From an uncultured Desulfobacterales bacterium (GTDB lineage Bacteria; Desulfobacterota; Desulfobacteria; Desulfobacterales; B30-G6), in the NCBI GenBank assembly GCA_964435695.1, contig CAYTAQ010000003.1, forward strand, positions 1-62,178: a stretch of DNA of 62,178 nucleotides, given 5' to 3'. Positions within the stretch are counted from its first letter, which is position 1; every line of letters starts with the position of its first letter. Below the pieces are notes generated by a model. The model was not told where the DNA came from, did no database searches, and was given only the letters and a program-made list of their open reading frames with translations. This document shows positions 3,274-59,582 of this stretch, piece by piece. The position numbers were made by a program, and so were the translations under genes.

Positions 3274-3298
3274 GAAGTTCTCCTGTTTGTTGCTTTAG

Positions 3299-27269: not shown

Positions 27270-27364
27270 TCAGTTTCGTTACAATCGTTTTTCGGTTTGA
27301 TAATTATAACGGCCGTCAACGTATCGTCGCTTTCGCGAACGCAAACCATATTTTTTTAAAAAAG

Positions 27365-38717: not shown

Positions 38718-40529
38718 TTAAATTCCGTAAAAGAAGTAAAGGATTGACAGTTCGACGCTCAAAAAAATAACGGTCATGATCAGGCCGGCTTTGGCATAAT
38801 CCAGGGTTCGATAACCGCCGGGCCGCATGACCAGGGCGTTGACCTGATGCGTGGGCAGCACGAAGGTGTTGGACGCCGACAACCCGACCACCAGGGCCGC
38901 CATGCGCGGATCAGCTCCGGCAATGACCGCCATGTTCATGCACAGGGGCACCAGCAGCACGGTTGCGCCCACGTTTGAAATCACCAGGGTAAAAAAGGAG
39001 GTCATGATGCCTACAGCGGTCAACAGCAAGATGGGAGACGGCTGTCCCAGCAGCCCCAGTATCTGGTTGGCGATAAAGGCCGCGGTGCCGGTTTTTTCAA
39101 AGGCCATGCCAAGCGGAATGAGACCCGCCAGCAGAAATACGGTCATCCAGTCGACCGCCCGGTAGGCCTCGTCGATGTTGAGCACCCCACTGATGATCAT
39201 TCCCAGGGCGCCCGACATGAGGGCCACCGAAAGCTGAATCTTGAAAAAAATGATCTGGGCAAGTGAGACCGCCAGCCATAAAATGGCCAGTTTTGCTTTC
39301 TGGGGCCGCATGATTTCGCCTTCGAGCGGCGTCGCGAAGGTCAGCGCTCGTGGCTGCGGCCTGTTCTTGAGAATATGAAACCGCTCCCAGGGCCCCTGCA
39401 GAAGCAGGGTATCACCCATCTGGAGCTGAATGTGGGTCAGACCGCTGTAATAGATGCGTTTGCCTTTGAACAGGGCGACTGGATTGAGCTGGTAAAGATC
39501 CTTGAAGTTGACTTCGTTCATGGTTTTGCCGACCAGCTCCGACCGGGGTGAAACCACGGTTTCAGCCATGCCCGCATTGGTTCGGGAAAGGCTTTCGCCA
39601 AATGTATTCAGGCTTTCTTTGAGCGTCCAGCCATACTCCGATGCGAGCTGCCTTACATTTTTTTCCCTGCCCACCACGGCGATGTCGTCATTGGCGGCAA
39701 TGGGGCTGTAGCTTCTGGGAACGAAATTTTTTTCCTTTTTGTCCGCGTGGTAGACGGCTACGACGGTGACGAGAAATTTTGTCCTTATGTCAAGTTCGGA
39801 GAGTGTGCGCGGACCGTTGAAGTTTTCCGGCACCAGCAGTTCGAAGGTGCTGCCCAGCGCCTTATACTCTTCCATCAGCGAAGCCGTTACGCCCTTGTCA
39901 GCCTCCCCCTTGGCGGCCGGCAGGACAAAACGGCCGAACAAAACGAAATAGAGGATGGCGCTTCCCAGCAGACAGATTCCGATGGGCGTCTGGGTGAAGA
40001 GACCGAAGGGTTCCAGCTTTTCACCGCCGAGAACCATCAGGTCGTTCAGCAGAATCGTGGGGCTGGCGCCGACAAGCGTGATGGTCCCGCCGATAATTGC
40101 GCAAAATCCCATGGGCATGAGGATACGCGAAACCGGGACATTCATCCTTTTTGCGATCCGCTGTGCGGCCGGTAAAAAAAGCGCGGCCGCGCCGATATTC
40201 TGCATCATGCTCGAAATGATGCCCACAGCACCTGAAATCAGCGTAATGACGCGTTTTTCGCTTTTGCCGGCAAAGCGAATTATCGGGCCGGCAACTTGAT
40301 TCATCACGCCCGTTTTGTCCAGTCCGGCGCCGATGATGATCACGGCGATGATGGAGCAGACCGCATTGCTGCTAAGCCCCACAAAGGCGTCTTTAGGTGA
40401 AACGAGGCCGATTAGAGGAAGCAGCACCATCATGATAATGCCGACGACGTCAACCCTCACCCATTCAAAAACAAAGAGAACGATTACAAAAACAAGCACG
40501 ATCATAGTTAAAATCATGTCAGGTGCCAT
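38718..40529 (-). CDS. SLC13/DASS family permease with TrkA-C domains
   Basis: IIGAGLDKTG, MMQNIGAAA, GGTITLVGAS, SNVGATVLLVP, PTHQVNALV. Confidence 0.9.
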   Translation of the reverse strand: MAPDMILTMIVLVFVIVLFVFEWVRVDVVGIIMMVLLPLIGLVSPKDAFVGLSSNAVCSIIAVIIIGAGLDKTGVMNQVAGPIIRFAGKSEKRVITLISGAVGIISSMMQNIGAAALFLPAAQRIAKRMNVPVSRILMPMGFCAIIGGTITLVGASPTILLNDLMVLGGEKLEPFGLFTQTPIGICLLGSAILYFVLFGRFVLPAAKGEADKGVTASLMEEYKALGSTFELLVPENFNGPRTLSELDIRTKFLVTVVAVYHADKKEKNFVPRSYSPIAANDDIAVVGREKNVRQLASEYGWTLKESLNTFGESLSRTNAGMAETVVSPRSELVGKTMNEVNFKDLYQLNPVALFKGKRIYYSGLTHIQLQMGDTLLLQGPWERFHILKNRPQPRALTFATPLEGEIMRPQKAKLAILWLAVSLAQIIFFKIQLSVALMSGALGMIISGVLNIDEAYRAVDWMTVFLLAGLIPLGMAFEKTGTAAFIANQILGLLGQPSPILLLTAVGIMTSFFTLVISNVGATVLLVPLCMNMAVIAGADPRMAALVVGLSASNTFVLPTHQVNALVMRPGGYRTLDYAKAGLIMTVIFLSVELSILYFFYGI

Positions 40530-42223: not shown

Positions 42224-42327
42224 CGTTACAATTTGCAATGGTATTATCCGCCATGTCAAATAAGCATTGATTAACAGGTAGTTATGTACTGTTGCCGGAG
42301 AAGCGAACAGCGTTGCAGATCGCAACG
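42224..42327. promoter_or_regulatory. Candidate enhancer sites
   Basis: CGTTAC-N5-GCAATG (42224-42240) and perfect CGTTGC-N5-GCAACG (42311-42327). Confidence 0.5.
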
Positions 42328-42460
42328 AAATCCAGGCAAACCAACACGTCGAAACAATTTTGCATCGGCCGGTTATTTGTGGTATTCAGTCTTTGGTGTG
42401 TCTTGCAGCCGATGTTTTTCCTGGCGCGACCATGCCCTTCGGGTAAAAGAAAGGGTAATC

Positions 42461-44461
42461 ATGCGAATTTTCAAAAAAGAAGACGTGCAGGGGGCAGGAA
42501 GCAGCGAACTCGATGAGCTGCGCAGGACGGTTGGCGATGCCGGTCTGCCCGGGGATGTTGAAAAGGCTGCCCAAAAGGAACTCGACCGGATCGAGAAAAT
42601 GGGGCCGGCCAGCGCCGAATACACGATAGGTATCAACTATATTGATTTTGTGGCCAGTCTGCCCTGGCTCAAATCCACCGAGGACCGGCTGGACCTCAAA
42701 TCGGCGGAAGCGATTCTGGATGCCGAGCACTTCGGCCTTACGGAAATAAAAAACCGCATTCTGGAACACCTGGCCGTCAGGATACTGCAAACGTCACACC
42801 GCGAAAAGATGCTGGTGGTGGACGACGAAAAAATCACGCGTATGAATCTTGAGCATGTCCTTTCAAAGGAGGGCTACGATGTCGTGGTTGCCGCCGATGG
42901 ATCCGATGCGCTGGCGCTTTTGGAAAAAAACAGATTCGACGTTATCCTCACCGATTTAAAAATGGAAAAAGTCGACGGTATGGAGGTGCTCGGGAAGGCC
43001 AAGGAGAAAGATCCGTCCACGGAGGTCATCATTATCACCGGATATGCCACGGTGCCTACGGCGGTCGAGGCCATGCAGAAGGGATCGTATCACTTTCTGG
43101 CCAAGCCGTTGAAACTGAATGAAATCAGGTCCACCGTCCAGCAGGCATTATCCCGCAAACACGGCCGGTTCGAATCCCGCGGTTCGGTGCTTTGTTTTGC
43201 CGGGCCGCCCGGAACGGGAAAAACCTCGCTGGGGATGTCCATCGCCAGGAGCATGCACCGCAAATTTACGCGAATCTCTTTGGCGGGCATGAAGGATGAA
43301 GCCCAGCTCAGAGGGCATCGGCGAAGCTATGTAGGCGCTCTGCCCGGAAGAATCATTCAGGAAATCAGGCGCTGTGATACCCGCAACCCGGTCTTCATGC
43401 TGGACGAGTTGGACAAGATCGGCCAGGATTTCAAGGGCGATTCGGCTGCCGCCCTTCTGGAAATCCTGGACCCGGAACAGAACACCCATTTCATGGACCA
43501 CTATCTGGACATTCCTTTTGATCTGTCAAAAGTCATGTTTATCGCCACCGCCAATGCAGTGGACACAATTCCCGGCCCCCTGCTGGACCGTCTGGAGGTT
43601 TTGTGGCTTTCAGGGTATACGGACGTGGAAAAAACGCAAATCGCCTTCAATTATCTGATACCCAGAGAAAACCGCGCCGCAGGGCTTACCGATCCACCGG
43701 TCCGGTTTACCCCGGAAGCGGTGCGCAAGATAATTCGCGAATACACCCGGGAGGCCGGTCTGCGCGATCTGCAGCGACAGATTGCTTCGCTGTGCAGAAA
43801 AATAGCCCGCAACAAGCTGGATCCAAAAATAGGAATTGAGGATCTCCTGATTACCGAACAGCATGTTGAGACCCTTCTGGGACCCTGCCGGTTTTTCGTT
43901 GAGGTCGCGCATGCCAAAGACCGCATCGGCGTAGCGACCGCCCTTGCATGGACGGATGCCGGCGGAGAAATCGTTTTTATCGAAGCAACCAAAATGAAGG
44001 GTCGCAATCACCTTATCCTGACCGGATCGCTGGGCACGGTAATGAAGGAATCCGCCCAGGCGGCGTTGAGCTATATCCGCAGTCATGTCGAAGATTATGG
44101 AATAGCGGAGGACTTTTTCGAACAGCACGACATCCACATCCATATCCCGGCCGGTGCGATTCCTAAAGACGGCCCGTCGGCAGGTCTGCCGATCGCCATG
44201 GCGCTGTTGTCCCTGATTACCGGGCGGCCCTGCCGCCGCGATGTGGCCCTTAGCGGTGAGCTGACCTTGACCGGGCGCATACTGCCGGTGGGCGGTGTAA
44301 AGGAAAAGGTGCTGGCCGCCCATCGGGCCGGTGTAAAAACGGTTATATTTCCAGCCAAAAACAGTGCCAATCTGCAGGATATCCCCATCGAGATCGAAAA
44401 TGAACTCACCATCTCTTCGGTCGAAGAATTGTACCAGGCAGTCGATCTGGTCTTAAAATAG
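42461..44461 (+). CDS. lon: Lon protease lacking the N domain, with a receiver domain inserted before Walker A
   Basis: GPPGTGKTS, LDELDK, REAGLRDL, PKDGPSAG (catalytic Ser), GGVKEK (catalytic Lys); REC MLVVDD...TDLKM...AKP; start ATG 42461. Confidence 0.9.
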   Translation: MRIFKKEDVQGAGSSELDELRRTVGDAGLPGDVEKAAQKELDRIEKMGPASAEYTIGINYIDFVASLPWLKSTEDRLDLKSAEAILDAEHFGLTEIKNRILEHLAVRILQTSHREKMLVVDDEKITRMNLEHVLSKEGYDVVVAADGSDALALLEKNRFDVILTDLKMEKVDGMEVLGKAKEKDPSTEVIIITGYATVPTAVEAMQKGSYHFLAKPLKLNEIRSTVQQALSRKHGRFESRGSVLCFAGPPGTGKTSLGMSIARSMHRKFTRISLAGMKDEAQLRGHRRSYVGALPGRIIQEIRRCDTRNPVFMLDELDKIGQDFKGDSAAALLEILDPEQNTHFMDHYLDIPFDLSKVMFIATANAVDTIPGPLLDRLEVLWLSGYTDVEKTQIAFNYLIPRENRAAGLTDPPVRFTPEAVRKIIREYTREAGLRDLQRQIASLCRKIARNKLDPKIGIEDLLITEQHVETLLGPCRFFVEVAHAKDRIGVATALAWTDAGGEIVFIEATKMKGRNHLILTGSLGTVMKESAQAALSYIRSHVEDYGIAEDFFEQHDIHIHIPAGAIPKDGPSAGLPIAMALLSLITGRPCRRDVALSGELTLTGRILPVGGVKEKVLAAHRAGVKTVIFPAKNSANLQDIPIEIENELTISSVEELYQAVDLVLK

Positions 44462-44532: not shown

Positions 44533-45621
44533 TTAGCCGTTCTTTTGTTCGAAGTCCTTCATAAACTGACAGAGCTTCTCAACCGCTTCAATGGGTGTGG
44601 GATTGTAAATAGACGCCCGGCAACCGCCCACGGAGCGATGGCCCTTCAAACCGCCCATTTTATTTTCAAGGGCCTGCTGCACAAAGGCTTTTTCCAGATC
44701 TTCGCTGGGAAGGCGAAATGTGACGTTCATCATGGAACGGCTGGCGACTTCCGCCGTCCCCCTGTAAAAATCACTGTCATCAATCGTCTTGTAAAGCATA
44801 CCGGCCTTTTTCAGATTGACTTCCTTCATTTTCTCCAATCCGCCGATGGTTTCTTCCAGCCACTTTAAAACCAGCTGAACCGTATAGACGGCAAAACACG
44901 GCGGCGTATTAAACATGGAATTCTTTGCTGCAAAGGTGGTGTATTTCAGGATGGTAGGCAGATCATCCGGCACCATTTTTAAGAAATCATCCCGAATGAC
45001 GACAACACATACGCCGGCAGGTCCCATGTTTTTCTGCGCACCGGCATAAAACATTCCGAACCGGCCCGCATCAAACGGCCGGCTCAATATGTCCGAAGAC
45101 ATGTCCGCAATCAGCGGCACGCCGCCGGTATCGGGAAATTCAGCCCACTGGGTTCCTTTGATGGTGTTGTTCGACGTGATATGGGCATAGACCGCATCCC
45201 TGCTGAAGGGGATGTTCCTGGGTATATAAGAAAAATTCTTGTCTTCCGAAGACGCAACGACCTTGATTTGCTTGCCCTGAATTTCAGCCTCTTTAATGGC
45301 CTTGGTCGACCAGGTACCGGTGTTGACATAATCCGCTGACGCATCAGCGGCTAAAAAATTCATCGGTACCATGCAAAACTGTATGCTGGCGCCCCCCTGT
45401 AGAAACAGGACATGAAAGGTATCATCCAACCCTAAAAGACGCTTCAACCTTGCAACGGCATCGTTTATGACATCATCAAACCATTTTGACCTGTGACTGA
45501 CTTCGGTAATAGACATGCCCGATCCCCTGAAATCAAGAAAGGACGCTTGAATTTCTTCCAAAACGCTTAAAGGCAGCGCAGCCGGACCCGCATTAAAGTT
45601 GTAGATTCGATTTGTCGTCAT
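44533..45621 (-). CDS. serC: Phosphoserine aminotransferase
   Basis: NFNAGPAALP, DMSSD, YAGAQKN, GHRSVGGCRASIYN. Confidence 0.97.
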   Translation of the reverse strand: MTTNRIYNFNAGPAALPLSVLEEIQASFLDFRGSGMSITEVSHRSKWFDDVINDAVARLKRLLGLDDTFHVLFLQGGASIQFCMVPMNFLAADASADYVNTGTWSTKAIKEAEIQGKQIKVVASSEDKNFSYIPRNIPFSRDAVYAHITSNNTIKGTQWAEFPDTGGVPLIADMSSDILSRPFDAGRFGMFYAGAQKNMGPAGVCVVVIRDDFLKMVPDDLPTILKYTTFAAKNSMFNTPPCFAVYTVQLVLKWLEETIGGLEKMKEVNLKKAGMLYKTIDDSDFYRGTAEVASRSMMNVTFRLPSEDLEKAFVQQALENKMGGLKGHRSVGGCRASIYNPTPIEAVEKLCQFMKDFEQKNG

Positions 45622-45950: not shown

Positions 45951-47267
45951 ATGAACATATACCGATATCCATCCCTACGAGCGAACAAAAAAATCGCCGC
46001 CATTGAAAACAGGGCCATCGGATTCAAAAAGAAAGACATCAACGCTGTTTCACGCATACTGGAAAACGTCAGAAGAAAAGGCGATCGGGCACTGATTGAA
46101 TACACCCATCGCTTTGACGATGCTGATTTAAGCGCTGATTCCATTCAGGTAACCCGCAAGGAGATGGAAACAGCCGCTGCGCAGGTGGATCGATCATTTA
46201 TTCGCGCCTTGAATCGTGCTGCAAAGCAGATCAAGCAGTTCCATCAGCAGCAGGTGCAGGCATCCTGGATCAAAACGGATCGACCCGGCACACTGGTCGG
46301 GCAAATGGTATCACCGGTGGAAGCCGCGGGCATTTACGTTCCCGGCGGCAGAGGTGGAAAAACCCCATTGGTATCTTCGGTTTTGATGTGTGCGATTCCC
46401 GCAACCATCGCCGGCGTCAAAAAAATTGTCATGGTAACCCCGCCCACGCAAAACGGTTCCGTGGATCCGCATTTGCTCGTCGCTGCAAAAAAGGCGGGCG
46501 TTCACGAGGTTTATAAGATTGGAAGCGCCTGGGCTGTCGCGGCTTTGGCTTATGGCACGGAAACGGTTCCCAAAACCAATGTCATCGTCGGACCGGGAAA
46601 TATGTATGTCACGCTTGCTAAAAAAATCGTTGCAGGCAACGTGGGTATCGATATGATCGCAGGCCCCAGTGAAATATTGATTGTCGCCGATGATGATGCA
46701 GTGCCTGAATATATTGCGGCCGATCTTCTTTCCCAGGCGGAGCATGATCCTTTGGCTTCTTCCATCCTGGTGACGACCTCGGAGCGGATTGCTGCCGACG
46801 TATCAACGGTTCTGAAAAACCAGCTGCGCAATCTCTCACGAAAGGATATCGTAGAAGCATCCCTGCGCAAGTATGGGACTATTCTGGTTGTTCCGGATAT
46901 CTCAACAGCCATCGATGTTGCCAATCGCGTTGCGCCGGAACACCTGGAATTGCAGGTTCAAGACCCTTTCAGCTTGATCGGGTTGATTCAAAATGCCGGC
47001 GCCGTATTTATCGGTGATTATACACCCGAACCGGTGGGCGATTACATGGCCGGGCCAAATCATGTCCTCCCCACAGCCGGTACGGCACGCTATGCTTCCG
47101 CGCTCTCCGTCGATAACTTTGTCAAGAAAACCAGCCTGCTTCACTATTCAGCCGCTGCTTTTCGAAAAGAAGCAGCCGATATCATTCGCATCGCGGAAGT
47201 CGAAGGACTGGACGCTCATGCCCATGCGGTGAAGATCCGCTTAAAGAACGATCAGCATCACAAATAA
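45951..47267 (+). CDS. hisD: Histidinol dehydrogenase
   Basis: GIYVPGG, IVGPGNMYV, IAGPSEI, LSQAEHD, APEHLE, GPNHVLPT. Confidence 0.97.
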   Translation: MNIYRYPSLRANKKIAAIENRAIGFKKKDINAVSRILENVRRKGDRALIEYTHRFDDADLSADSIQVTRKEMETAAAQVDRSFIRALNRAAKQIKQFHQQQVQASWIKTDRPGTLVGQMVSPVEAAGIYVPGGRGGKTPLVSSVLMCAIPATIAGVKKIVMVTPPTQNGSVDPHLLVAAKKAGVHEVYKIGSAWAVAALAYGTETVPKTNVIVGPGNMYVTLAKKIVAGNVGIDMIAGPSEILIVADDDAVPEYIAADLLSQAEHDPLASSILVTTSERIAADVSTVLKNQLRNLSRKDIVEASLRKYGTILVVPDISTAIDVANRVAPEHLELQVQDPFSLIGLIQNAGAVFIGDYTPEPVGDYMAGPNHVLPTAGTARYASALSVDNFVKKTSLLHYSAAAFRKEAADIIRIAEVEGLDAHAHAVKIRLKNDQHHK

Positions 47268-47295: not shown

Positions 47296-48306
47296 ATGGC
47301 AGCGGAGCGATTGATTATAAACAACCTGTTGTCAAAGGTAAAACAGGGAAACAAAAAAAGCGCCTCGTGGTTGATGCGGATGATTGAAGACGGCGGTCCC
47401 CAGGCAGGCGCCATCCTATCCCGTCTCTATGACTTCTCTGCAACGGCACATCGTATCGGTATTACAGGATGGCCCGGGGTCGGTAAATCAACCCTGGTGA
47501 ATGCCTTGGCAAAGGCATATCTGGATGAGGGAAGACGTGTGGGGATTGTTGCTGTGGATCCCACCAGCCCTTACTCCGGAGGCAGCCTGCTTGGCGACCG
47601 CGACCGTTTCAGGGATGTGGACGGCCATCCCGATCTCTTCATCCGGTCCATGGCAACGCGAGGGTACGGCGGGGGCGTCGGTAAAGCCACCCGTGGAATC
47701 GTCAAAGTCATGGAAGCCATGGGTCAAGACGTGGTCCTGCTTGAAACCGTGGGAGTCGGCCAGGATCAGGTGGGTGTTTCCGCTATTGTGGATACCACCA
47801 TCATGGTGACGGCGCCCGGCCTCGGCGATTTCCTGCAATCCCTTAAAGCAGGCGTTCTCGAAGCCGGCGAAATCCTGGTGGTGAATAAAGCGGACAACCC
47901 GAATGCCGAACAGACCGCGGCGGATTTAACGGCATTGATCGAAATGGGACGTCACCCGGACGGGTGGAAACCCAGACTGGTATTAACCGTGGCCACCCGG
48001 GGAACAGGTATCGATGATTTACTGAAATCCATCCGGGATCACCGTCTTTTCCGGCAACAAAAGGGCGGCGTGAATCCCCGGCACAAAATAGCCGCGCGCC
48101 AGGAAATCCTGGATATGATCCGTGAACAGTGCCTCAATGCGGTAGCATGCCGCACCGGTCTCTACACTCGTTTGCCGGATCTGGTCGACCAGGTCTTTCA
48201 GGGCAGGCAGGACCCGTTGCGTATTGCGCAGGCATTGTTGAAAGAATGCAATTTATGTGACGATCCATCAGAAGATCCATCCATAGAAGACCCCTCAGGA
48301 GAATAA
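47296..48306 (+). CDS. meaB: MeaB/ArgK GTPase chaperone of B12 mutases
   Basis: GWPGVGKST, DPTSPYSGGSLLGDR, FIRSMATRG, ETVGVGQD, NKAD. Confidence 0.93.
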   Translation: MAAERLIINNLLSKVKQGNKKSASWLMRMIEDGGPQAGAILSRLYDFSATAHRIGITGWPGVGKSTLVNALAKAYLDEGRRVGIVAVDPTSPYSGGSLLGDRDRFRDVDGHPDLFIRSMATRGYGGGVGKATRGIVKVMEAMGQDVVLLETVGVGQDQVGVSAIVDTTIMVTAPGLGDFLQSLKAGVLEAGEILVVNKADNPNAEQTAADLTALIEMGRHPDGWKPRLVLTVATRGTGIDDLLKSIRDHRLFRQQKGGVNPRHKIAARQEILDMIREQCLNAVACRTGLYTRLPDLVDQVFQGRQDPLRIAQALLKECNLCDDPSEDPSIEDPSGE

Positions 48307-48308
48307 AT

Positions 48309-49937
48309 ATGCGTGAAGAACAAGTAAAGAGTACGTATCTTAGCGGCGAAAAATTACCCAATTTTGATTCTCTCTCCGGATTCCCTTATCAGGAGGTATA
48401 CCGCAAATCGGATTGGAATGAAAACCTGCCGGACCCCGGCCAATACCCTTACACCCGAGGCATCCATAAAAACATGTACCGGGGACGTTTGTGGACCCGC
48501 CGGCAGCAAAGCGGATTCGGCAGCCCGGAAGAAAGCAACGAGCGCTTAAAATATCTGCTCAACGTGGGCCAAACCGGTATTAATATGGATGCGGACATCG
48601 TGACAAAATTGGGACTGGACCCTGACCACCCGCTGGCCCGGGGCGATGTGGGTCTTACAGGAACCTCTTTGTTTTGCTATGAAGACATGCAGGCGCTCTT
48701 TAAAGGAATACCGCTCGATGAAGTCAGTTCAACACTGATCGTTCAACCACCGTACTCCGCCGTTATTATGTGCCACTATCTTCTGCTGGCTAAAGAGCGC
48801 GGCATTCCCTGGGAAAAACTTGTGGGAACCATTATGAATTGCGCCTTTACGCAGTTCGTGGGCCCCACGTTCCAATCCGCCACAACATTTTTTCCCCTGG
48901 ATCTGTCGGTAAAAATCGGTCTGGATGTCATGGAATACATGCTCCCCCGTTCGCCGCGCTGGAACATCCTAAATCTGAACGCCTACAATGTGCGCGAAAC
49001 CGGCGTAAATGCGGTACAGGAAGCAGCCTTTTCCATGTCACTGGCCTCCGACTATATCAAAGCCCTCATAAACCGCGGCCATGACGTGGACACATTTGCC
49101 AGACGCATGGCTTTTTTTACCGCCGCCCACCTCGACCTCTTTGAAGAAATTGCAAAACTCCGGGCCATGCGACGCATCTGGGCACGGATGCTAAAAGAAA
49201 AATTCAAGGCCAAGGATGAACGCTCCATGTACTGGCGAACGGCCATCCAAACCGCCGCTCTGCCGCTGACCGCCCAGGAGCCGTTGAACAATATTGTCAG
49301 AGCCACAATTCAGACCCTGGCTGCAGTGCTGGCGGGAACCCAGTCGATTCATACCACAGGCTATGACGAAGCCTACTCTCTGCCGACCGAAGAGAGTCAC
49401 AAGCTCTCGGTCCGTACCCAACAGATTATCGCCTACGAAAGCAAAGCAGCCAACACCGTCGATCCTTTGGGCGGTTCCTACATGATTGAGAAACTCACCG
49501 ACCGGATGGAGGAAGAAATCTGGGAATTGATGCAAACGCTGGAAGACAAAGGCGGTTTCATCGCGTGTTTCAAACAAGGTTGGATAGAGGAACAGATCAA
49601 TCAGGCCCGCTACAGCATGGCCGATGACATTGAGTCCGGCAAGCAGTCTGTGATCGGGGTAAACCTGTTCCACACGCAACAGGAAGCGCCGAAGATCAAT
49701 ATTTTCCGCACCGCTCCGGACATGCAGGATAGACGCATCGCTTACGCCCGCCTTTACAAAACCAAGCGTGATTCTGAGGCGGCCAAAACTGCAACCGGCA
49801 ACCTCGGAGATCTCGTGGCCACGAACACCAATATCAATTATATGGACAGCATCATGGAAGCGGTCAAATCCAGGGCCACTCTACAGGAAATATGCGATGC
49901 CATGCGACAGGCTTCCAACTTTACAATCCCTAAATAG
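48309..49937 (+). CDS. B12-dependent acyl-CoA mutase large (TIM-barrel) subunit, non-canonical active site
   Basis: PGQYPYTRGI, EEIAKLRAMRRIWA, EPLNNIVR, YDEA, DPLGGSYMIE; canonical substrate motifs altered. Confidence 0.9.
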   Translation: MREEQVKSTYLSGEKLPNFDSLSGFPYQEVYRKSDWNENLPDPGQYPYTRGIHKNMYRGRLWTRRQQSGFGSPEESNERLKYLLNVGQTGINMDADIVTKLGLDPDHPLARGDVGLTGTSLFCYEDMQALFKGIPLDEVSSTLIVQPPYSAVIMCHYLLLAKERGIPWEKLVGTIMNCAFTQFVGPTFQSATTFFPLDLSVKIGLDVMEYMLPRSPRWNILNLNAYNVRETGVNAVQEAAFSMSLASDYIKALINRGHDVDTFARRMAFFTAAHLDLFEEIAKLRAMRRIWARMLKEKFKAKDERSMYWRTAIQTAALPLTAQEPLNNIVRATIQTLAAVLAGTQSIHTTGYDEAYSLPTEESHKLSVRTQQIIAYESKAANTVDPLGGSYMIEKLTDRMEEEIWELMQTLEDKGGFIACFKQGWIEEQINQARYSMADDIESGKQSVIGVNLFHTQQEAPKINIFRTAPDMQDRRIAYARLYKTKRDSEAAKTATGNLGDLVATNTNINYMDSIMEAVKSRATLQEICDAMRQASNFTIPK

Positions 49938-49948: not shown

Positions 49949-50347
49949 ATGTCAGCAAGAAAAAAACGAATCGTCATAGGCAAAATCGGTTTGGATTCCC
50001 ATGACAACGGCATTCGCATCGTCAGTAAATGGTATATGGATCATGGTTATGAGGTCATCTATTCCGGTCTGTACAATACCTCGGAACGAATCGTGCAAAT
50101 TGCCATCGAAGAATCGGCGGACGCCCTGGGAGTCAGTTTCCTTGGGGCCGAGCACCTGCATTACGGCCGCGAGCTTTCAGAATTGGTCAAAGCAAAGGGG
50201 TTGAACGATCTCAAACTTATTATCGGCGGAGTCATCCCTCCCGAGGATGTCAAGGAACTTGCCGACATGGGGTTTCAAGCGATCTTTACACCGGGGACCC
50301 GTCGCAAGACGATTCTTGACACAACCGATCAGATACTGAATATGTAA
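49949..50347 (+). CDS. B12-binding small subunit of the acyl-CoA mutase
   Basis: DSHDNG (DxHxxG), GVSFL, IIGGVIP, IFTPGT. Confidence 0.92.
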   Translation: MSARKKRIVIGKIGLDSHDNGIRIVSKWYMDHGYEVIYSGLYNTSERIVQIAIEESADALGVSFLGAEHLHYGRELSELVKAKGLNDLKLIIGGVIPPEDVKELADMGFQAIFTPGTRRKTILDTTDQILNM

Positions 50348-50373: not shown

Positions 50374-51732
50374 ATGGAAATAGAAAACAAGCTGGTGCAA
50401 TTTGTAAAAGCCCTTCGTTTCCAGGAAATTCCCTCCCGGACTCTGGCTACTGTGAAAAACATGTTGATGACTGTAGCAGGCACCACCATTGCCGGAGCGG
50501 AGGCGGAAGGTTGTTCGGAAATAAGGGAGCTGTATGTCGCGTTGGGAGGTCGGGCCGAGGCCACGATTCTGGTTCACGGCGGCAAGCTGCCCGCACAACA
50601 CGCTGCGCTTGTCAACGGTGTAATGGCCCGGGCTCTGGATTATTGCGATGCCATGGCGCCCGGCCTGCACATTGGTTCGTCACTCGTCCCTGCGACCCTT
50701 GCCGCTGTCGATTTGCGCGGCGGTTGCAGCGGTGAAGAATTTTTAACCGCTCTCACCGCGGGCGCTGAGCTGAGTTCGCGTTTGAATCTCAGTGAATCTG
50801 CTTACAACGGCTTTGATCCAACCGGTGTTGCCGGCGTTTTCTCCGGCACCGCAGCAGCCTCTCGTATACTGGGTCTTGATGATTCACAACTTTGGAATGC
50901 ATTGGCGCTTGCCGGCAACCGCAGCGGTGCAACCTTTCAGAGCAACATCGACGGTTCGCTGGCCGTACGGCTGATTCAGGGATGGGTTGCTGCTACAGGC
51001 ATAGAATGCGCCCGCCTTGCCCAAAAGGGAATTACCGGACCCAAAAACTTTCTCGAGGGAGTCTACGGTTACTTCCACCTGTTTGCCAAGGATCAATACG
51101 ATCCTGAAACGGTGACCGGCCGCCTGGGCCAGGAATTTCAGCTCAACAAAATCGTTTTTAAGAAATTTCCGAGCTGCGGGCTGACACAGGGCGTCACTGA
51201 GCTGGCCCTTTCTTTAACCGCAGAACATGACTTAAAACCGCAGGAAATCAGCTCTGTGGAAGTTTTGGTGCCGCCCTATGCGCATAAGTTGGTCGGACAT
51301 AACTTTCAAATCGGGGACAATCCGAAGGTCAACGCCCAGTTCAGTATTCAATACTGTGTGGCCAGCGCCATTGTCCGGAATGGATCTCAGCTGCAGCACT
51401 TTGAAAAGGAAGCAATCACGGATCCTGAAGTTGCATCTCTAATCAAAAAAATCAAGGTCATTCCCGACCCCGGGATGGATATTCGGGGGCATACTTCCGT
51501 GGATCTTCGCGTGACCACCATACACGGCCGGGAATTTTTTACCCGGCTCGATCATGCACCGGGCTTCCCGGAAAATCCCCTTTCAGACCGGGAACATCTG
51601 CGCAGGTTTCGGGATTGCGTCCACTTTGCTGCTCGGCCGCCATCCAAAAGCAAGACCGAAGAATTGATCGATACCGTGCAAACCATTGAAAAACTGCATG
51701 ATGTCCGTGGTTTCATTTCATTAATGACATAA
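50374..51732 (+). CDS. MmgE/PrpD family protein
   Basis: AALVNGVMARALDYCD...H, GFDPT, KKFPSC, AQFSIQY, GFPENPLS. Confidence 0.9.
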   Translation: MEIENKLVQFVKALRFQEIPSRTLATVKNMLMTVAGTTIAGAEAEGCSEIRELYVALGGRAEATILVHGGKLPAQHAALVNGVMARALDYCDAMAPGLHIGSSLVPATLAAVDLRGGCSGEEFLTALTAGAELSSRLNLSESAYNGFDPTGVAGVFSGTAAASRILGLDDSQLWNALALAGNRSGATFQSNIDGSLAVRLIQGWVAATGIECARLAQKGITGPKNFLEGVYGYFHLFAKDQYDPETVTGRLGQEFQLNKIVFKKFPSCGLTQGVTELALSLTAEHDLKPQEISSVEVLVPPYAHKLVGHNFQIGDNPKVNAQFSIQYCVASAIVRNGSQLQHFEKEAITDPEVASLIKKIKVIPDPGMDIRGHTSVDLRVTTIHGREFFTRLDHAPGFPENPLSDREHLRRFRDCVHFAARPPSKSKTEELIDTVQTIEKLHDVRGFISLMT

Positions 51733-51860: not shown

Positions 51861-53423
51861 ATGAATCTGTTGGATATTTTGGTAAAATACAACCGGCTCT
51901 CGCCCAAAGCCACAGCCCTGGTGGAGATCAGGCCGCTTTCCGGAAAACGGCATGAAATTACATGGGAATCCTTGTACGAGCGCACCAATCGCCTGGCCAA
52001 CACGCTGTTATTGCAGGGTATCGGTAAGGGCGATACCGTCTTTTTATACGCCCACAATTCAATCGCCTGGCTGGAGGTGTATTTCGGTGTCATGAAAACC
52101 GGAGCATGCGTGGTGCCGCTCAATTACCGTTTCACGGATAAGGAATTGATGTATTGCCGGGAAATCGCTCATCCCAAGGCTTTCTTTTTCGGACCGCAGT
52201 TTGGCAGTCGGATTTCAGCCCTTCAATGCGAGCTGACCGGCGTCCGTCAATACGCATGCCTTGATTCGGAAGTTACCCCTTTTGACAGCCTGGATGAATT
52301 GATCAGCAGGGGAGGACCGTCGGATCCGAATACAGAGCTGTTCGACGACGGTGCAGCCGGACTTTATTTCACCAGCGGCACCACAGGCAATCCCAAACCA
52401 GTGCTGATGACGCACAAGAACCTTTTTTCCGCGGCAATCATCGAAGCGTTCAATCACCGGCTGTTATCGAGCGACGCCCTGCTGATGATGCCACCGTTCT
52501 ATCATCTGGCCATCGGCCATCTTACCGGCAATATGCTGGTGGGCGGAAGAAGTGTTCTGCTCACCGAAAAGATCAGCCCGCAAACCATCATTCAGACCAT
52601 GTCCGACGAGAAGATCAGCGTCGTATTCCTCCTGGTTCCCTGGGCGGTGGACATCCTGGAAGCGCTTGACAAGGGCCGATTGTCCCCTTCCGATTTTGAC
52701 CTGGATGCATGGCGGCTCACCCACATGGGCGCCCAGCCCATCCCGCCGGTACTGGTGCAAAGGCTCAAGCAATACTTCCCCGGCATGTTGTACGACACCT
52801 GTTACGGTCTCAGCGAAGCCGCCGGCCCGGGTGTGTTAAATCTGGGAATTGAAAATGAGCATAAGATCGGGGCGACCGGAAAGGCCGGACTCCTATGGGA
52901 TACCCGTATCGTGGACCACGAGGGACGCGATGTTGCCAAGGGAGAAGTCGGTGAACTGATCGTCAAGGGTCCGGGTGTGATGCGGGAGTATTATGACAAT
53001 CCTGAACTCACCGCCGAAACCGTAAGAGACGGCTGGCTTTTCACCGGCGACCTGGCGCGATTCGATGCAGACGACTTCATCTGGGTGGTGGACCGCAAAA
53101 AAGACCTGGTGATCAGCGGCGGAGAAAATATTTTCCCGGTGGAAATCGAAAAGACAATTATACAGCATCCAAAAGTGCACGACGTGGCCGTTATCGGCAC
53201 CCCGGATAATCGATTGGGCGAGATTGTCACGGCCGTGATACAGGTTGTGGAGGGAGAAAAGCTCCTTGAAGAGGAGATATCGGTATTCTGTGAGGCGTGC
53301 CTGCCGCGCTACAAACGCCCACGCTGCATTATTTTTGACAAGGTACCGCGGAATCCCACCGGAAAACTTAACAAACCGCTGTTGCGGCAAAAGTTCGCCG
53401 CTCCAAAAAAAGAAGGGATATAA
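51861..53423 (+). CDS. Acyl-CoA synthetase (ANL family)
   Basis: FTSGTTGNPK, CYGLSE, TGDL, SGGENIFP, NPTGKLNK. Confidence 0.92.
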   Translation: MNLLDILVKYNRLSPKATALVEIRPLSGKRHEITWESLYERTNRLANTLLLQGIGKGDTVFLYAHNSIAWLEVYFGVMKTGACVVPLNYRFTDKELMYCREIAHPKAFFFGPQFGSRISALQCELTGVRQYACLDSEVTPFDSLDELISRGGPSDPNTELFDDGAAGLYFTSGTTGNPKPVLMTHKNLFSAAIIEAFNHRLLSSDALLMMPPFYHLAIGHLTGNMLVGGRSVLLTEKISPQTIIQTMSDEKISVVFLLVPWAVDILEALDKGRLSPSDFDLDAWRLTHMGAQPIPPVLVQRLKQYFPGMLYDTCYGLSEAAGPGVLNLGIENEHKIGATGKAGLLWDTRIVDHEGRDVAKGEVGELIVKGPGVMREYYDNPELTAETVRDGWLFTGDLARFDADDFIWVVDRKKDLVISGGENIFPVEIEKTIIQHPKVHDVAVIGTPDNRLGEIVTAVIQVVEGEKLLEEEISVFCEACLPRYKRPRCIIFDKVPRNPTGKLNKPLLRQKFAAPKKEGI

Positions 53424-55516
53424 TGGCTAAAAAAATTGTGCGCAGCGCTTGCCGGGCCTGTCACGGCGGATGCGGTGTGTTGGTCACCGTGGAAGACAAC
53501 CGTGTCACCAACATCAAAGGCGACCCAGACTGCCCGGTGAACCGGGGATGGCTTTGCATCAAGGGTAAGAAATATCACACCATCACCCACCACCCGGATC
53601 GCCTCACCCACCCGATGAGCAAAGCCGACGGTTCATGGAAAAAGATATCCTGGGACGAAGCGTTCGATCTTGTCAGTGAGCGCTTTCTGTCCTACAAACG
53701 TGACTACGGCGCCGAATCCGTGGTTTTGGGGTACGGCACCGGCCGGGACATCGAATCCTTTATCTACCGCTTTGCGCACACCTTTGGCACGCCCAACGTG
53801 CTCACCGCCGGCCACATGTGTTACGGCCCCCGCATCGTAACCGGCATTTCCCTTTGCGGCAATCTGCCGGTGGTGGATTACGAAGGCCATCCTTCCTGCG
53901 TCGTGGTATGGGGCTGCAATCCCCTGGTTTCCAATCCCGACGAATACAAGGGCATCTACCTGGCCCGGGCCATTCAGCACGGAGCCAAGATTATCTGTAT
54001 TGATCCCAGACGCACGATCATCGCCAGGCAGGCCGATATCTGGCTGCAAATCCGGCCCGGCACGGATGGTGCGCTTGCCTGGGGCATGATCAACCACATC
54101 ATCGAAAATAACCTGTATGACGCGGATTTTGTGGAAAATCAGATTCACGGCTGGGATGCGTTTCGCGAACGGGCCAGAGAGTATCCCCTGGACTGGGCGG
54201 CTGAGAAAACCGGTCTGGATGCAGGTGATATCGCCGCAGCCGCTGAAATGTATGCTACCGCGGGACCGGCAGGAATACACTGGGGTGTGGCCCTGGAACA
54301 GACCCAAAACTGTATCAACAACATCAGGCTGTTGATCGGCCTGATGGCCGTCACCGGCAATCTGGATCGCCCCGGCGGCCAGGTCTTCTATCCCAACCCG
54401 CCGGTGGTCAATGCCTCGCAATTGGGCATGCATCGCGGCCTGACTCCGGATATGCTGAAAAAAAGACTTGGCGCGGAGCGCTTCCGCCTGGCGGCCCGCA
54501 TTGCGGTAATCAATCCCAAGGCGGTCTGGGACGCTATTTTAACTCAGACCCCCTACCCGGTCAAAGCCGTGTATCTCATCAGCACCAATCCCGTCATCAC
54601 ACGGGCCAACGCCAGGCAGGTGCACCAGGCCCTTTCCGCCGTGGACTTTCTTGTAGTCCAGGACTTCTTTATGACGCCCAGCGCATCATTGGCGGATGTG
54701 GTGCTGCCGGCAGCCACCTGGCTGGAAATCGACTACGTGGGAGATCTATGGAAGCGTCACGGATGGATAGTGGCCCGCAACAAGGCGGTAACGGTGGGTC
54801 AGGCCCGTTCGGACTATGACATTATCAACGAGTTGGGCAAGCGCTGCACGGATCCTCGTAACTGGTGGCCTACCCTGACAGACGCCTTCAACGACATCCT
54901 CTCTCCGGCCGGCATGACCTGGGAACAGTTCTCGCAGCGAGGATATCTGCAAGGCGAACGCAGATTCAGAAAATATAAGCGGGACGGCTTTCGTACCCCC
55001 ACCCGTAAAGTGGAGCTCTACTCAACCGTAATGGAACGGCTGGGATATGACCCCCTGCCCGGCTTTTCAGACCCGCCTGAAACTCCCTGGAGCAACCCCG
55101 AGATCGCCAAAGAATTCCCTTACCAGCTCATCACCGGGGCGCGTATACCGTTCTTTTTTCACAGCGAGAACCGGCAACCAGGCTTTCTGCGCTCCAGACG
55201 GCCCGATCCCATCGTGGAAATCCATCCCAAATTGGCGGCGGCCAAGGGGATAACCGAGGGCGACTGGGTTCGCATCGCATCCCCCCGGGGCAGCGTGGTG
55301 CAAAAGGCATTGATCACCGACCGCGTGCCGGAAAATGTGGTTTCCGCCGACCACGGCTGGTGGTTTCCGGAAGATCAGAATACCCAGGGGTGGGACCGCT
55401 CCAATATCGATGTCCTCACCGACAATGCCTATGAGAGTTGCGACCCGGCCATGGGCGCCACCAACCTGCGCACCTGCCTGTGCGATGTGACCCGAGCCGA
55501 AAGTCCCTATCCGTGA
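53423..55516 (+). CDS. Mo/W-bisPGD oxidoreductase, acetylene-hydratase-like subfamily
   Basis: N-terminal CxxCxxxC...C [4Fe-4S] motif, GHMCYG metal-ligand Cys, IDPR, RPGTDGAL, HGWW; no TAT signal. Confidence 0.88.
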   Translation: MAKKIVRSACRACHGGCGVLVTVEDNRVTNIKGDPDCPVNRGWLCIKGKKYHTITHHPDRLTHPMSKADGSWKKISWDEAFDLVSERFLSYKRDYGAESVVLGYGTGRDIESFIYRFAHTFGTPNVLTAGHMCYGPRIVTGISLCGNLPVVDYEGHPSCVVVWGCNPLVSNPDEYKGIYLARAIQHGAKIICIDPRRTIIARQADIWLQIRPGTDGALAWGMINHIIENNLYDADFVENQIHGWDAFRERAREYPLDWAAEKTGLDAGDIAAAAEMYATAGPAGIHWGVALEQTQNCINNIRLLIGLMAVTGNLDRPGGQVFYPNPPVVNASQLGMHRGLTPDMLKKRLGAERFRLAARIAVINPKAVWDAILTQTPYPVKAVYLISTNPVITRANARQVHQALSAVDFLVVQDFFMTPSASLADVVLPAATWLEIDYVGDLWKRHGWIVARNKAVTVGQARSDYDIINELGKRCTDPRNWWPTLTDAFNDILSPAGMTWEQFSQRGYLQGERRFRKYKRDGFRTPTRKVELYSTVMERLGYDPLPGFSDPPETPWSNPEIAKEFPYQLITGARIPFFFHSENRQPGFLRSRRPDPIVEIHPKLAAAKGITEGDWVRIASPRGSVVQKALITDRVPENVVSADHGWWFPEDQNTQGWDRSNIDVLTDNAYESCDPAMGATNLRTCLCDVTRAESPYP

Positions 55517-56686: not shown

Positions 56687-57718
56687 ATGCCGGAATTCGA
56701 CTTTTTACTGGACATTGATCTGTTTAAAAAAAGTCTATCAGAGCAACAGGTGGTCATCGAGCTTTTCTGGGAAAAAGCCCGGCTCCTGCTGAACGGTTCG
56801 GGAATTCAATTAACCCCCCTGCCAAAATCGTGGACCACCTTGCGGCAAAATCATTTTTCCGTATTATTTATCGCTATTTTTTTCATCCTAAAAATCCCGT
56901 TGGACCGACTCAGACTTTATGCCCGTCTGAATCATTGCCTCAGGTCCTGGGTCACGGCATGCGACAATCTGCTCGATAACGAACTGAAAGAAATGATTAT
57001 CACGGACTTGCCTGAAAATGCCCGCACATTTAAATCGGTACATACGCTGCTCGTCACGGATCGTATCTTTTTTTCCTTTCTTATGGATGCCGTCCACGCC
57101 AAAATTATTTCTGAAAAGGAAATGATGCGATTGTTGGCTGTGTCTTTGTCTTCCATCTCCGCCAGCGGCAGAGAAGAAGCCGAAGAAGAGGAAGGGATTG
57201 ATCACACGCTGCCACCGGAAGATGTTCTTAACAAGATTCATTCAGCCAAGACAGGCCGGTTGTTCATATCGCCCTTATGCGCACCCGCCGCTCTCCACGA
57301 TATCAATAGTGAGGACCCGCAGGTTGCCGGCGTTCGGGAAGGACTCATGGCATTCGGACTTGGATGCCAGGTTCTGGATGATTTGAGCGACCTCGGCATG
57401 GATCTCTACGACAACAAATACAACTATCTGGCGGCATTGATCGTTCACGGTAACGATATGAAAGAAAAAGAGCTTTTGCTGGCATTAGCGTCCAAGGGCT
57501 TAACTCCTGGCATACGCAATGATTTTCAACTCTATCAAAAATTTCCGCACGCTTCAAAAAACGCCATGGACATGGCGGTATCCCAGCTGCATCGAGCCTT
57601 GACGCATCTTTCTCAGTCAGGCTTGCCGTTGACCGCCATTAACAGAGAATCGTTTATCAAGGTTTTGATCAAGGTCTTCCGTCACCCCAATCGCCTGTTG
57701 AATATAAGGGAGCGATAA
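56687..57718 (+). CDS. Class I isoprenoid-synthase-fold protein
   Basis: DNLLD first motif, KTGRLF, FGLGCQVLDDLSD second aspartate-rich motif. Confidence 0.7.
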   Translation: MPEFDFLLDIDLFKKSLSEQQVVIELFWEKARLLLNGSGIQLTPLPKSWTTLRQNHFSVLFIAIFFILKIPLDRLRLYARLNHCLRSWVTACDNLLDNELKEMIITDLPENARTFKSVHTLLVTDRIFFSFLMDAVHAKIISEKEMMRLLAVSLSSISASGREEAEEEEGIDHTLPPEDVLNKIHSAKTGRLFISPLCAPAALHDINSEDPQVAGVREGLMAFGLGCQVLDDLSDLGMDLYDNKYNYLAALIVHGNDMKEKELLLALASKGLTPGIRNDFQLYQKFPHASKNAMDMAVSQLHRALTHLSQSGLPLTAINRESFIKVLIKVFRHPNRLLNIRER

Positions 57719-58914: not shown

Positions 58915-59582
58915 TGGATATCGCCGTCTCTTTAATAAACGCGAGCAAAGTATTTATGACCGGCAGTGCGCAGGTAAAGGCGATTTCCGATGTTTCATTC
59001 GATATACCCGATGGATCATTTTGGGTCATTGCCGGTCCTTCCGGATCAGGCAAAACAACCCTTTTAAACCTCATCGGCGGACTGGATCGCGCAACATCCG
59101 GTGAGGTTGTCATAGGAACGATGAAGCTGAGCCGTATGGATGAGCAGGGCCTTGCGCTCTACAGAAGAAGCCGGGTGGGATTCATCTTCCAGGGAAACAA
59201 TTTAATAACCAGCCTCACCGCATTTGAAAACATCGAGATTCCCCTGATTTTGACCGGCGCGTCCCATAGAAAAAGCAAAGTCCGGGCCATTCTGGAAGAA
59301 ATCGGGTTGAGCGACAAGCACCGCATGTTCCCGCAATTCTTATCGGCAGGAGAACAGCAGCGGATTGCCGTAGCCCGAGCGGTGGTGCATTCCCCGAAAA
59401 TCGTGCTGGCGGATGAACCCACGGCGAACCTCGATGCCAAGACCGGCTCTGAAATTCTGATCCTGCTTCAGCGATTGAATCGCAAACTCAAAAGAACCAT
59501 TCTGCTTTCGACCCATGATCCAAGAATCATCGAAAACAGTGAAAATGTGTTGCAACTGTCGGACGGCAAACTCCAGTTGTAA
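58914..59582 (+). CDS. LolD-like ABC ATPase
   Basis: GPSGSGKTT, LSAGEQQR, ADEPTANLD, STHD. Confidence 0.9.
   Translation: MDIAVSLINASKVFMTGSAQVKAISDVSFDIPDGSFWVIAGPSGSGKTTLLNLIGGLDRATSGEVVIGTMKLSRMDEQGLALYRRSRVGFIFQGNNLITSLTAFENIEIPLILTGASHRKSKVRAILEEIGLSDKHRMFPQFLSAGEQQRIAVARAVVHSPKIVLADEPTANLDAKTGSEILILLQRLNRKLKRTILLSTHDPRIIENSENVLQLSDGKLQL

Follow-up and report, generated by a model that had tools for sequence, protein, structure and literature searches.

A conserved clade of two-subunit acyl-CoA mutases with a remodelled substrate pocket in anaerobic Desulfobacterota and Syntrophorhabdia

Described acyl-CoA mutases and the mutase gene of the window

To our knowledge, only a few specificities of adenosylcobalamin (AdoCbl)-dependent acyl-coenzyme A (acyl-CoA) mutases are known: methylmalonyl-CoA mutase (MCM), ethylmalonyl-CoA mutase (ECM), isobutyryl-CoA mutase (ICM) and IcmF, pivalyl-CoA mutase (PCM), 2-hydroxyisobutyryl-CoA mutase (HCM), the RcmAB type (RCM), the phenylsuccinyl/benzylmalonyl-CoA mutase IaaGH, and some alkylsuccinyl types. 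Every new specificity so far has opened a pathway (ethylmalonyl-CoA, methyl tert-butyl ether/2-hydroxyisobutyrate (2-HIBA) degradation, degradation of acetone) or has given a biocatalyst. Here we describe a mutase gene located at positions 48309-49937 of a 62,178-nt stretch of DNA from an uncultured Desulfobacterales bacterium (assembly GCA_964435695.1, contig CAYTAQ010000003.1), which as a whole is called the window, and the clade to which its product belongs. The superfamily, the fold and the cofactor machinery are known, while a conserved variant of this enzyme type in a recognisable but undescribed operon is new. We consider it fairly likely that the gene encodes a real mutase, that this mutase is the central enzyme of a self-contained module for the catabolism of an imported carboxylic acid (TetR, MeaB, mutase large and small subunits, PrpD-like protein, acyl-CoA ligase and, optionally, the transporter DctPQM of the tripartite ATP-independent periplasmic (TRAP) type), and that its substrate is a polar, succinate-like or beta-substituted branched acyl-CoA.

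The described system closest to this locus is HcmAB of Aquincola tertiaricarbonis (structure 4R3U), which has separate large and small subunits and a MeaB-type chaperone and is the best match by sequence and by fold. Two subunits and a MeaB-like chaperone are also found in RcmAB of Kyrpidia tusciae and Bacillus massiliosenegalensis, a type with a member in the Desulfobacteraceae, but the window locus has no linked thiamine-dependent enzyme. The acetone-pathway mutase of Desulfococcus biacutus was described as RcmAB-like (PMC7176365), and in Desulfosarcina cetonica the large subunit has 64.7 kDa and the gene order is reductase-MeaB-small-large (PMC7888143). MCM (P. freudenreichii 1REQ, human 2XIJ) shares the fold and the cofactor-binding logic. 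ICM, IcmF and PCM belong to the same superfamily, and some members of the clade described here are encoded near genes of branched-chain amino-acid catabolism. Finally, judged by its description, IaaGH of Aromatoleum aromaticum is a B12 mutase for a substituted succinyl-CoA, whose genes share an anaerobic catabolic operon with those for a CoA ligase and a molybdenum enzyme.

In the window, the mutase is encoded by two genes, preceded by a chaperone gene:

47296-48306, plus strand: MeaB-type G-protein chaperone (Pfam MeaB, E 3.9e-79; TIGR00750, 290.9 at a cut-off of 240.75)
48309-49937, plus strand: large (substrate-binding, TIM-barrel) subunit of an acyl-CoA mutase, 542 aa, 61.4 kDa (Pfam, HMMER, MAFFT, AlphaFold2)
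49949-50347, plus strand: B12-binding small subunit, 132 aa (Pfam B12-binding, E 1e-17; NCBIfam acid_CoA_mut_C, 121.9 at a cut-off of 57.45)

The three genes are co-directional, tightly spaced and translationally coupled, with the meaB stop codon 2 nt before the ATG of the large-subunit gene and the small-subunit gene starting 11 nt after the end of the latter. The open reading frame (ORF) of the large subunit is intact and has an AGGAG Shine-Dalgarno sequence 8 nt upstream. Promoter and terminator scans at the locus gave nothing better than in shuffled sequence.

The Pfam profile MM_CoA_mutase (PF01642) covers the whole large subunit (E 1.2e-166), with residues 22-535 aligned to positions 3-510 of the 512 in the profile, and the generic NCBIfam model of the acyl-CoA mutase N-terminal part is matched with 499 bits at a cut-off of 303.8. 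The equivalog models for methylmalonyl-CoA mutase (412.7, cut-off 876) and IcmF (207, cut-off 1500) stayed well under their cut-offs. Among solved structures, HMMER found HCM (4R3U_A, E 1.2e-116), human MCM (E 2e-95) and P. freudenreichii MCM (E 4e-83). An AlphaFold2 model based on an alignment of 107 sequences reached a mean predicted local distance difference test score (pLDDT) of 95.1 and a predicted template modelling score of 0.94, its weak spot being an inserted loop at residues 181-190 (pLDDT 69); the input of 20 close homologues had resulted in a poor model (pLDDT 64.6), which was remedied by the larger alignment. Superposition gave template modelling (TM) scores of 0.92 with HCM 4R3U (38% identity), 0.90-0.91 with MCM (30-33% identity) and 0.77-0.83 with IcmF (24-26% identity).

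The other features of the superfamily were found as well, with one departure. In addition to the full-length TIM-barrel domain, there is a B12-binding partner with the motif DxHxxG...SxL...GG and a MeaB/MMAA-type chaperone gene alongside. In the small subunit, the base-off/His-on motif reads DSHDNG (49994-50011), SFL (50135-43) and GG (50225-30) with the canonical spacings of 41 and 27 residues, and the chaperone has the P-loop GWPGVGKST (nt 47467-93) and the motif NKAD (nt 47884-95). Tyr243, Gln330 and Glu370 of the adenosyl/ribose site correspond to Y226, Q314 and E354. The departure is the catalytic His244, hydrogen-bonded to the thioester carbonyl, which is Asn227 throughout the clade. By homology and modelled fold, the ORF at 48309-49937 encodes the subunit that binds the substrate in an AdoCbl-dependent acyl-CoA mutase of two subunits, which is completed by the small subunit encoded downstream and served by the chaperone encoded upstream.

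The substrate pocket and its conservation

Residues were placed according to the HMMER alignments to HCM 4R3U_A and human MCM and to MAFFT alignments, one of them with approximately 140 sequences; residue numbers of canonical enzymes are those of P. freudenreichii MCM unless HcmA is stated. The motif RQ[Y/I]AGF is changed to RQQSGF (nt 48501-18), with Gln67 at the position of Tyr89 (Ile90 in HCM). In place of SVAFD (MCM) or STDFD (HCM) the mutase has NMDAD (nt 48582-96), with D94 in the column of HcmA Asp117 and A95 in that of Phe117. The stretch TIQNDILKE...R corresponds to TIMNCAFTQFVGPTFQS (nt 48828-78), in which Gln197 is replaced by Met176 and Arg207 by Ser190, the latter beside a net insertion of four residues (VGPT). 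SGYH is changed to NAYN (nt 48978-89), which retains the tyrosine (Tyr243, Y226) and replaces His244 by N227. Gln330 and Glu370 are retained in the motifs AIQ (49242-50) and TGYDE (49356-70). In MCM, His244 and Gln197 contact the thioester carbonyl, and His244 is the general acid which assists thioester migration. A comparison of 116 full-length clade members with 48 canonical SGYH representatives revealed further clade substitutions, among others A90S, S114N, D199C, E203Q, G242A, H328A and N366T.

An earlier inspection of the sequence by eye (the sequence-only reading) had proposed an active site unlike those of MCM, ICM and HCM, naming the changes Tyr89 to Gln, Phe to Ala, Gln197 to Met and His244 to Asn, an Asp at the HCM Asp117 position, the apparent loss of Arg207, and the retention of Tyr243, Gln330 and Glu370. 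HMMER and MAFFT reproduced each of these residues, the three retained ones being invariant in the clade, and the pocket matches none of the three enzymes, nor RCM. Misalignment as the source of the odd residues was ruled out, because the HMMER pairwise and two MAFFT alignments are concordant and the confident AlphaFold2 model superposes on HCM; the canonical residues were not restored. We also considered the extra Arg64 of WTRRQQ as a new carboxylate clamp. It was ruled out, as the same Arg is present in ICM- and HCM-like representatives and is not specific for the clade.

Among the 120 best database homologues, which show 69-75% identity, the four motifs are retained in 112-120, and the signature is present in all 116 full-length clade members. 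Scanning metagenomes with the patterns RLWTRRQQ and IHTT[GS]YDE uncovered 274 stretches encoding relatives, down to 59% identity; when genome contigs were searched with peptide patterns, only three clade members were found, the patterns being too specific. Since the pocket substitutions are invariant in the clade down to 59% identity, they point to selection and not to drift, and the remodelled pocket is, as judged from this pattern, under strong purifying selection. In a subgroup with RQQSGY and NMDPD, the Gln, the Asp and NAYN are retained. This subgroup of approximately 62% identity (L094, L095, L067 and L068) has tandem pairs of mutase genes, which are separated by a gene for a family III CoA-transferase or a TAXI-type TRAP receptor that replaces the PrpD-like and ligase genes described below.

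An exhaustive HMMER search of 1.84 billion protein representatives at 50% identity showed that the clade corresponds to a single full-length representative, P0121 (68% identity, 842 bits), followed at a distance by the next best one (480 bits, 42% identity). The nearest neighbours P0124, P0122 and P0126 have the His to Asn change and the loop insertion in common with it, but carry different residues again at the positions of Tyr89 and Asp117, and in a neighbour-joining tree HCM and MCM fall outside the group formed by the clade and these three. The named clade members are metagenome-assembled genomes (MAGs) of Desulfobacteraceae, Desulfatiglandales, Syntrophorhabdales and unclassified Thermodesulfobacteriota. 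Among them we found no isolate and no specific product name, generic names such as "methylmalonyl-CoA mutase" being used, and our literature search found no paper describing the clade. The contig of the window recurs in salt-marsh metagenomes. The clade is tight, conserved and so far uncharacterised, and its hosts are strict anaerobes of the Desulfobacterota and Syntrophorhabdia that live in sediments, marshes and peat.

More widely, the 50%-identity representatives P0122-P0270 show many residue combinations at the positions of Tyr89, Asp117, Gln197, Arg207 and His244, and the canonical SGYH is present in only about one third of the best 150 related representatives. This suggests that metagenomes may hold many unexplored acyl-CoA mutase-like specificities, the present clade being one of many non-canonical lineages.

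MCM, ICM/IcmF and HCM were set apart from the clade by direct alignment and RCM by a published residue list. An identity as MCM was ruled out: the clamp Tyr89 plus Arg207, with Gln197, is replaced by Gln67, Ser190 (at the loop insertion) and Met176, His244 is missing too, and the equivalog score is far below its cut-off. ECM, in the 2008 work of Erb and colleagues, is said to keep Tyr, Arg and His. ICM and IcmF were ruled out as well, as there is no Phe at the position of Tyr89, no Gln at that of Arg207, and Asn227 instead of the His; in addition, a separate canonical ICM occurs in Desulfobacteraceae. It is encoded in the MAG contig JAUWZC010000086.1 (L012, 520-7489) as a mutase with RMFAGL/STAFD/AQK/SGYH, a small subunit and MeaB, directly following genes for a thiolase, an enoyl-CoA hydratase and a butyryl-CoA dehydrogenase, and represents an isobutyrate/butyrate isomerisation cluster.

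Of the residues defining HcmAB, the Asp117 equivalent is present (D94), as are the equivalents of Tyr243, Gln330 and Glu370. In contrast, Ile90 is replaced by Gln, HcmA Gln198 and the catalytic His245 by Met and Asn, and Phe by Ala, the Gln208 loop is remodelled by the four-residue insertion, and the locus has another ligase type and a PrpD-like partner. With one defining residue matched and the others not, we would not file the mutase as an HCM. For RCM, the pocket of B. massiliosenegalensis RcmA is formed by Ile95, Val122, Val172, His174, Tyr252 and Phe296 (PMC11599936, supplement). This identity was ruled out, since Gln67 and Asp94 stand against Ile95 and Val122 at positions taken as equivalent via HcmA Ile90 and Asp117. 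The acetone-pathway mutase of Desulfococcus and Desulfosarcina was ruled out by the RCM pocket residues, the size of the large subunit (61.4 against 64.7 kDa), the order MeaB-large-small, and the missing partner genes. Taken together, no characterised member of the clade was found, with IaaG, ECM and PCM not among the sequences aligned.

These comparisons bear on two alternatives. The generic database name and the branched-chain aminotransferase and 2-oxoacid oxidoreductase genes near some loci would fit an ordinary isobutyryl-CoA/butyryl-CoA or methylmalonyl-CoA mutase, whose odd residues are an alignment artefact or due to neutral drift. Such an enzyme is extremely unlikely and already contradicted by the concordance of three independent alignments, the invariance of the substitutions down to 59% identity, the equivalog scores far below both cut-offs, and the existence of the separate canonical ICM (Phe/Gln/His) with beta-oxidation genes in Desulfobacteraceae. 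The second alternative is a catalytically divergent or non-mutase member. The CoA ester would then serve for holding only, and the group that is shifted or eliminated would not be the thioester; or else the protein would be a paralogue that has poor activity or a regulatory role. This alternative would accord with the loss of His244 and Gln197 as well as of His328 and Asn366 near the adenosyl site, and with the high diversity of approximately 31 neighbouring representative clusters at these positions. However, the B12 motif, MeaB and the equivalents of Tyr243, Gln330 and Glu370 are strictly conserved, the pocket is under strong purifying selection, and the combination of ligase and mutase in the operon follows the logic of classical acyl-CoA mutase pathways, so that we regard this alternative as very unlikely.

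The operon and the PrpD-like partner

Downstream and upstream of the three mutase-related genes, the following genes lie on the same strand of the window:

50374-51732, plus strand: MmgE/PrpD-family protein (Pfam match; alignments to PDB structures)
51861-53423, plus strand: FadD/MenE-type AMP-forming acyl-CoA ligase (Pfam AMP-binding, E 5.6e-65)
53423-55516, plus strand: cytoplasmic Mo/W-bis(pyranopterin guanine dinucleotide) (bis-PGD) enzyme, most similar to acetylene hydratase (2E7Z, E 2.6e-113 over the full length)
45951-47267, plus strand: histidinol dehydrogenase, hisD (NCBIfam TIGR00069, 542 at a cut-off of 243.8)

ORFs were called and clustered in 105 sequences, namely 104 loci and the operon region of the window; 62 distinct loci carry the signature. 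Downstream counts refer to the 30 distinct loci with at least 3.5 kb of downstream sequence and upstream counts to 33 loci. The PrpD-like gene and the FadD-type ligase gene directly follow the mutase genes in 20 of the 30 loci, and genes for TRAP DctQ/DctM come next in 8. Upstream of the mutase, TetR is encoded in 19/33 and MeaB in 11/33 loci. The full archetype, TetR-TetR-MeaB-large-small-PrpD-ligase-DctQ-DctM-DctP, is present on a 5.5-Mb contig (L107). No clean correlation was found between residue 95 (NMDxD) and the type of operon.

A PrpD-family gene also adjoins the mutase of the sister lineage P0126 in a Clostridia genome. The latter mutase (RLGC/SISCD/NAYN) is part of a large cluster (L105, MAG contig SLTJ01000023.1, 259-16604) with genes for two ADP-forming acyl-CoA synthetases, an Amidohydro_2 protein, a nitrogenase-like Oxidored_nitro and a NifH-like protein, an aldehyde:ferredoxin oxidoreductase, a thiolase with a DUF35-like partner, an acyl-CoA dehydrogenase and an enoyl-CoA hydratase.

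By its sequence, the PrpD-like protein is a distinct, unusual MmgE/PrpD subgroup. The equivalents of Asp93, His103 and Lys272 of human cis-aconitate decarboxylase are kept (D88 region, H99 and K265). His159 is replaced by Asp148, Lys207 by Val198 with Arg199 adjacent to it, and His277 by Cys268, a cysteine that iminodisuccinate (IDS) epimerase has as well. Among 31 orthologues, all of these residues are conserved. In NCBIfam only PrpD equivalogs were matched, with scores well under the cut-offs (35.6, cut-off 575). In 2025, the family member encoded in itaconate clusters was described as a (S)-(R)-methylsuccinate isomerase acting on the free acid only, and the known substrates of the family are all free acids which share a C4-dicarboxylate unit (PMC12290011). 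The PrpD-like protein of the window probably acts on a free acid, too, as an isomerase/epimerase or a (de)hydratase.

The acyl-CoA ligase presumably makes the CoA-thioester substrate of the mutase. Its NCBIfam matches are generic and below the cut-offs, and the top PDB matches are FadD5, FadD13 and feruloyl-CoA synthetase. The ligase is one of the points to be considered for an HCM-type hydroxyacyl-CoA mutase with a shifted range, which would interconvert 2-hydroxy-2-alkylacyl-CoA and 3-hydroxyacyl-CoA, or 3-hydroxyisobutyryl-CoA and 4-hydroxybutyryl-CoA, with Asp94 in the role that Asp117 of HCM has in binding the hydroxyl group. The solved structure nearest in sequence and in fold is that of HCM, the HCM-specific Asp is invariant in the clade, and the pocket is polar. 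Nevertheless, we judge such a mutase to be unlikely. Ile90, Gln197 and His244 of HCM are all replaced, the ligase does not resemble the 2-hydroxyisobutyryl-CoA ligase (HCL), a partner of the PrpD family is not known from 2-HIBA pathways, and, unlike in the acetone cluster of Desulfococcus and Desulfosarcina, neither a thiamine-dependent lyase nor a 3-hydroxybutyryl-CoA dehydrogenase is linked.

The start codon of the Mo/W-bis-PGD enzyme gene overlaps the stop codon of the ligase gene, the two being translationally coupled. The metal-ligand Cys is kept (GHMCYG, 53810-27), but a His stands at the position of Asp13, the catalytic residue of acetylene hydratase (CRACHGGC, 53450-73). This gene was linked to the mutase module only in the window and in one further locus (L022), where a 4Fe-4S ferredoxin gene comes next, and the enzyme is accessory to the module. 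The molybdenum enzyme of the iaa operon belongs to a family different from that of the acetylene-hydratase-like enzyme.

The hosts and the minority gene contexts should be considered together with the possibility that the clade comprises arylsuccinyl- or aryl-substituted acyl-CoA mutases of strict anaerobes, functional analogues of IaaGH for plant- or amino-acid-derived aromatic acids. The hosts belong to Syntrophorhabdales, Desulfatiglandales and Desulfobacteraceae, which are typical anaerobic degraders of aromatic compounds. Some clade mutase genes precede a gene for a PaaK-type (arylacetate) ligase or have 2-oxoacid:ferredoxin oxidoreductase and aminotransferase genes at their sides, and small residues in place of Phe117 would give room. 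The TRAP binding protein of the archetypal locus resembles (E 5e-45) a protein from Desulfovibrio whose structure was determined with a D-amino acid and whose family we take to have indole-type ligands, including an indole-3-acetate binder. Moreover, IaaGH shows that a B12 mutase acting on arylsuccinyl-CoA exists, and a PrpD-type racemase for a substituted succinate would fit. On the other hand, the pocket is rich in polar and not in aromatic or hydrophobic residues, there is no carboxylate clamp, and the hydantoinase-like and other iaa genes were absent from the surveyed clade loci. All in all, an aryl substrate seems quite improbable.

Only 28 nt separate the hisD gene from meaB, which follows it in the same direction, and hisD was absent from all other surveyed clade loci. 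It may be co-transcribed with the mutase module, but is probably a bystander housekeeping gene; as a member of the pathway it was judged unlikely, in view of its score as a bona fide hisD and of its link to the module, which is unique to the window. Upstream of hisD, a class-V aminotransferase gene (44533-45621, minus strand) is located in divergent orientation.

In two loci without TRAP genes, a DASS-family anion permease (CitMHS/Na_sulph_symp) is encoded upstream of the mutase at a distance of approximately 6-8 kb, i.e. at 38718-40529 (minus strand, with TrkA_C domains) in the window and at 1686-3296 (minus strand) in L006. It could be an alternative di/tricarboxylate importer, or its presence could be a coincidence.

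Proposed function of the mutase module

As stated above, we favour a catabolic module for an imported carboxylic acid. The PrpD-like enzyme would first prepare the acid in its free form, most likely inverting the configuration of the carbon beside a carboxylate, and the ligase would then thioesterify it. The mutase would rearrange the carbon skeleton, and ordinary enzymes of decarboxylation or beta-oxidation would complete the degradation. According to the standard scheme of acyl-CoA mutases, homolysis of AdoCbl would generate the 5'-deoxyadenosyl radical, which would abstract a hydrogen from the substrate; the -C(O)SCoA group would move to the neighbouring carbon, and the hydrogen would be given back. 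Asn227 and the remodelled loop 181-190 would stand in place of His244, Gln197 and Arg207, and the substrate would be recognised by Gln67, Asn92, Asp94 and Asn227 instead of a Tyr/Arg clamp.

Since nearly every specificity-defining residue is replaced, the mutase probably rearranges a compound that no characterised mutase handles. The substrate class is most likely a polar-substituted, succinate-like (C4-dicarboxylate-derived) or beta-substituted branched acyl-CoA, because the PrpD family, the polar pocket, the HCM-type Asp and the enlarged space at position 117 fit a substituted succinate-like or beta-substituted polar branched acid. The C4-dicarboxylate unit in the substrates of the PrpD family, together with the ligase and TRAP partners, suggests that the substrate may carry a second carboxylate or another polar group. 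An operon of this kind, with a substituted succinate-type acid, a ligase and a mutase, would resemble the succinyl-CoA and methylsuccinyl-CoA chemistry of MCM and ECM.

The sequence-only reading had also held that the radical chemistry is intact and that the pocket is roomier and lacks the carboxylate clamp, from which it concluded that the substrate is novel. The first claim is backed by the motif of the small subunit, the adjacent MeaB and the retained Tyr243, Gln330 and Glu370, and is called into question by the loss of His244, Gln197, His328 and Asn366. As to the second, a substrate without a carboxylate would agree with our results only in part: no cationic clamp is visible, but the PrpD-like, ligase and TRAP partners argue for di-acid-like chemistry.

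Several observations weigh against the proposed module and its substrate. No cationic residue that could hold a free carboxylate is evident in the pocket, and Asp94 would repel one. With His244, Gln197, His328 and Asn366 all replaced, the rate or even the chemistry could differ. In the PrpD-like protein, two cationic carboxylate ligands are lost (His159 to Asp and Lys207 to Val). The core module contains no decarboxylase or beta-oxidation genes. The PrpD-like and ligase genes are missing in 10 of the 30 loci; in these minority loci a PaaK-like ligase, 2-oxoacid:ferredoxin oxidoreductase and aminotransferase genes, or nothing obvious is found in their place. Finally, a metatranscriptome search found no RNA runs carrying the mutase gene.

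A further-reaching interpretation, possible but in our opinion rather doubtful, is that the clade, together with its sister lineages that have NAYN, makes up a new functional class of B12 acyl-CoA mutases which work without His244 as the general acid. This class would define an unrecognised anaerobic pathway, in which a widespread polar branched acid passes through TRAP uptake, PrpD-type racemisation as the free acid, CoA ligation and radical rearrangement of the skeleton. The candidates for the substrate would then be a beta-amino- or beta-hydroxy-isobutyrate-type acid or an amino- or hydroxy-substituted succinate, because in both the mutase (Asp94) and the PrpD-like protein (His159 to Asp, Lys207 to Val) cationic or neutral ligands were swapped for acidic ones.

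The clade is of interest for several reasons. It is abundant in anoxic sediments of marshes, peat, lakes and the sea, and its fully re-tooled pocket is under strong selection. It would show how a natural mutase manages without the pair His244/Gln197, a long-discussed element of the rearrangement mechanism. Further, the compact operon with a binding protein, a ligase and a PrpD-type enzyme makes the question of the substrate directly testable. The many other non-canonical mutase lineages in metagenomes temper the surprise but not this testability.

The remaining gene content of the window is typical of Desulfobacterota, with sigma-54 regulators, a Lon-type protease and ABC/FtsX systems. The protease is encoded at 42284-44461 on the plus strand and has AAA+, Lon lid and Lon_C domains; its architecture is uncommon, as a response-regulator receiver domain (residues 177-285) is inserted and replaces the usual N-terminal domain. 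At 26124-30690 on the minus strand, a CrtC-like lipocalin-domain protein is encoded beside an FtsX-type permease of 864 aa and an ABC ATPase, and a second MacB/FtsX-ABC pair is located at 57718-59582 on the plus strand.

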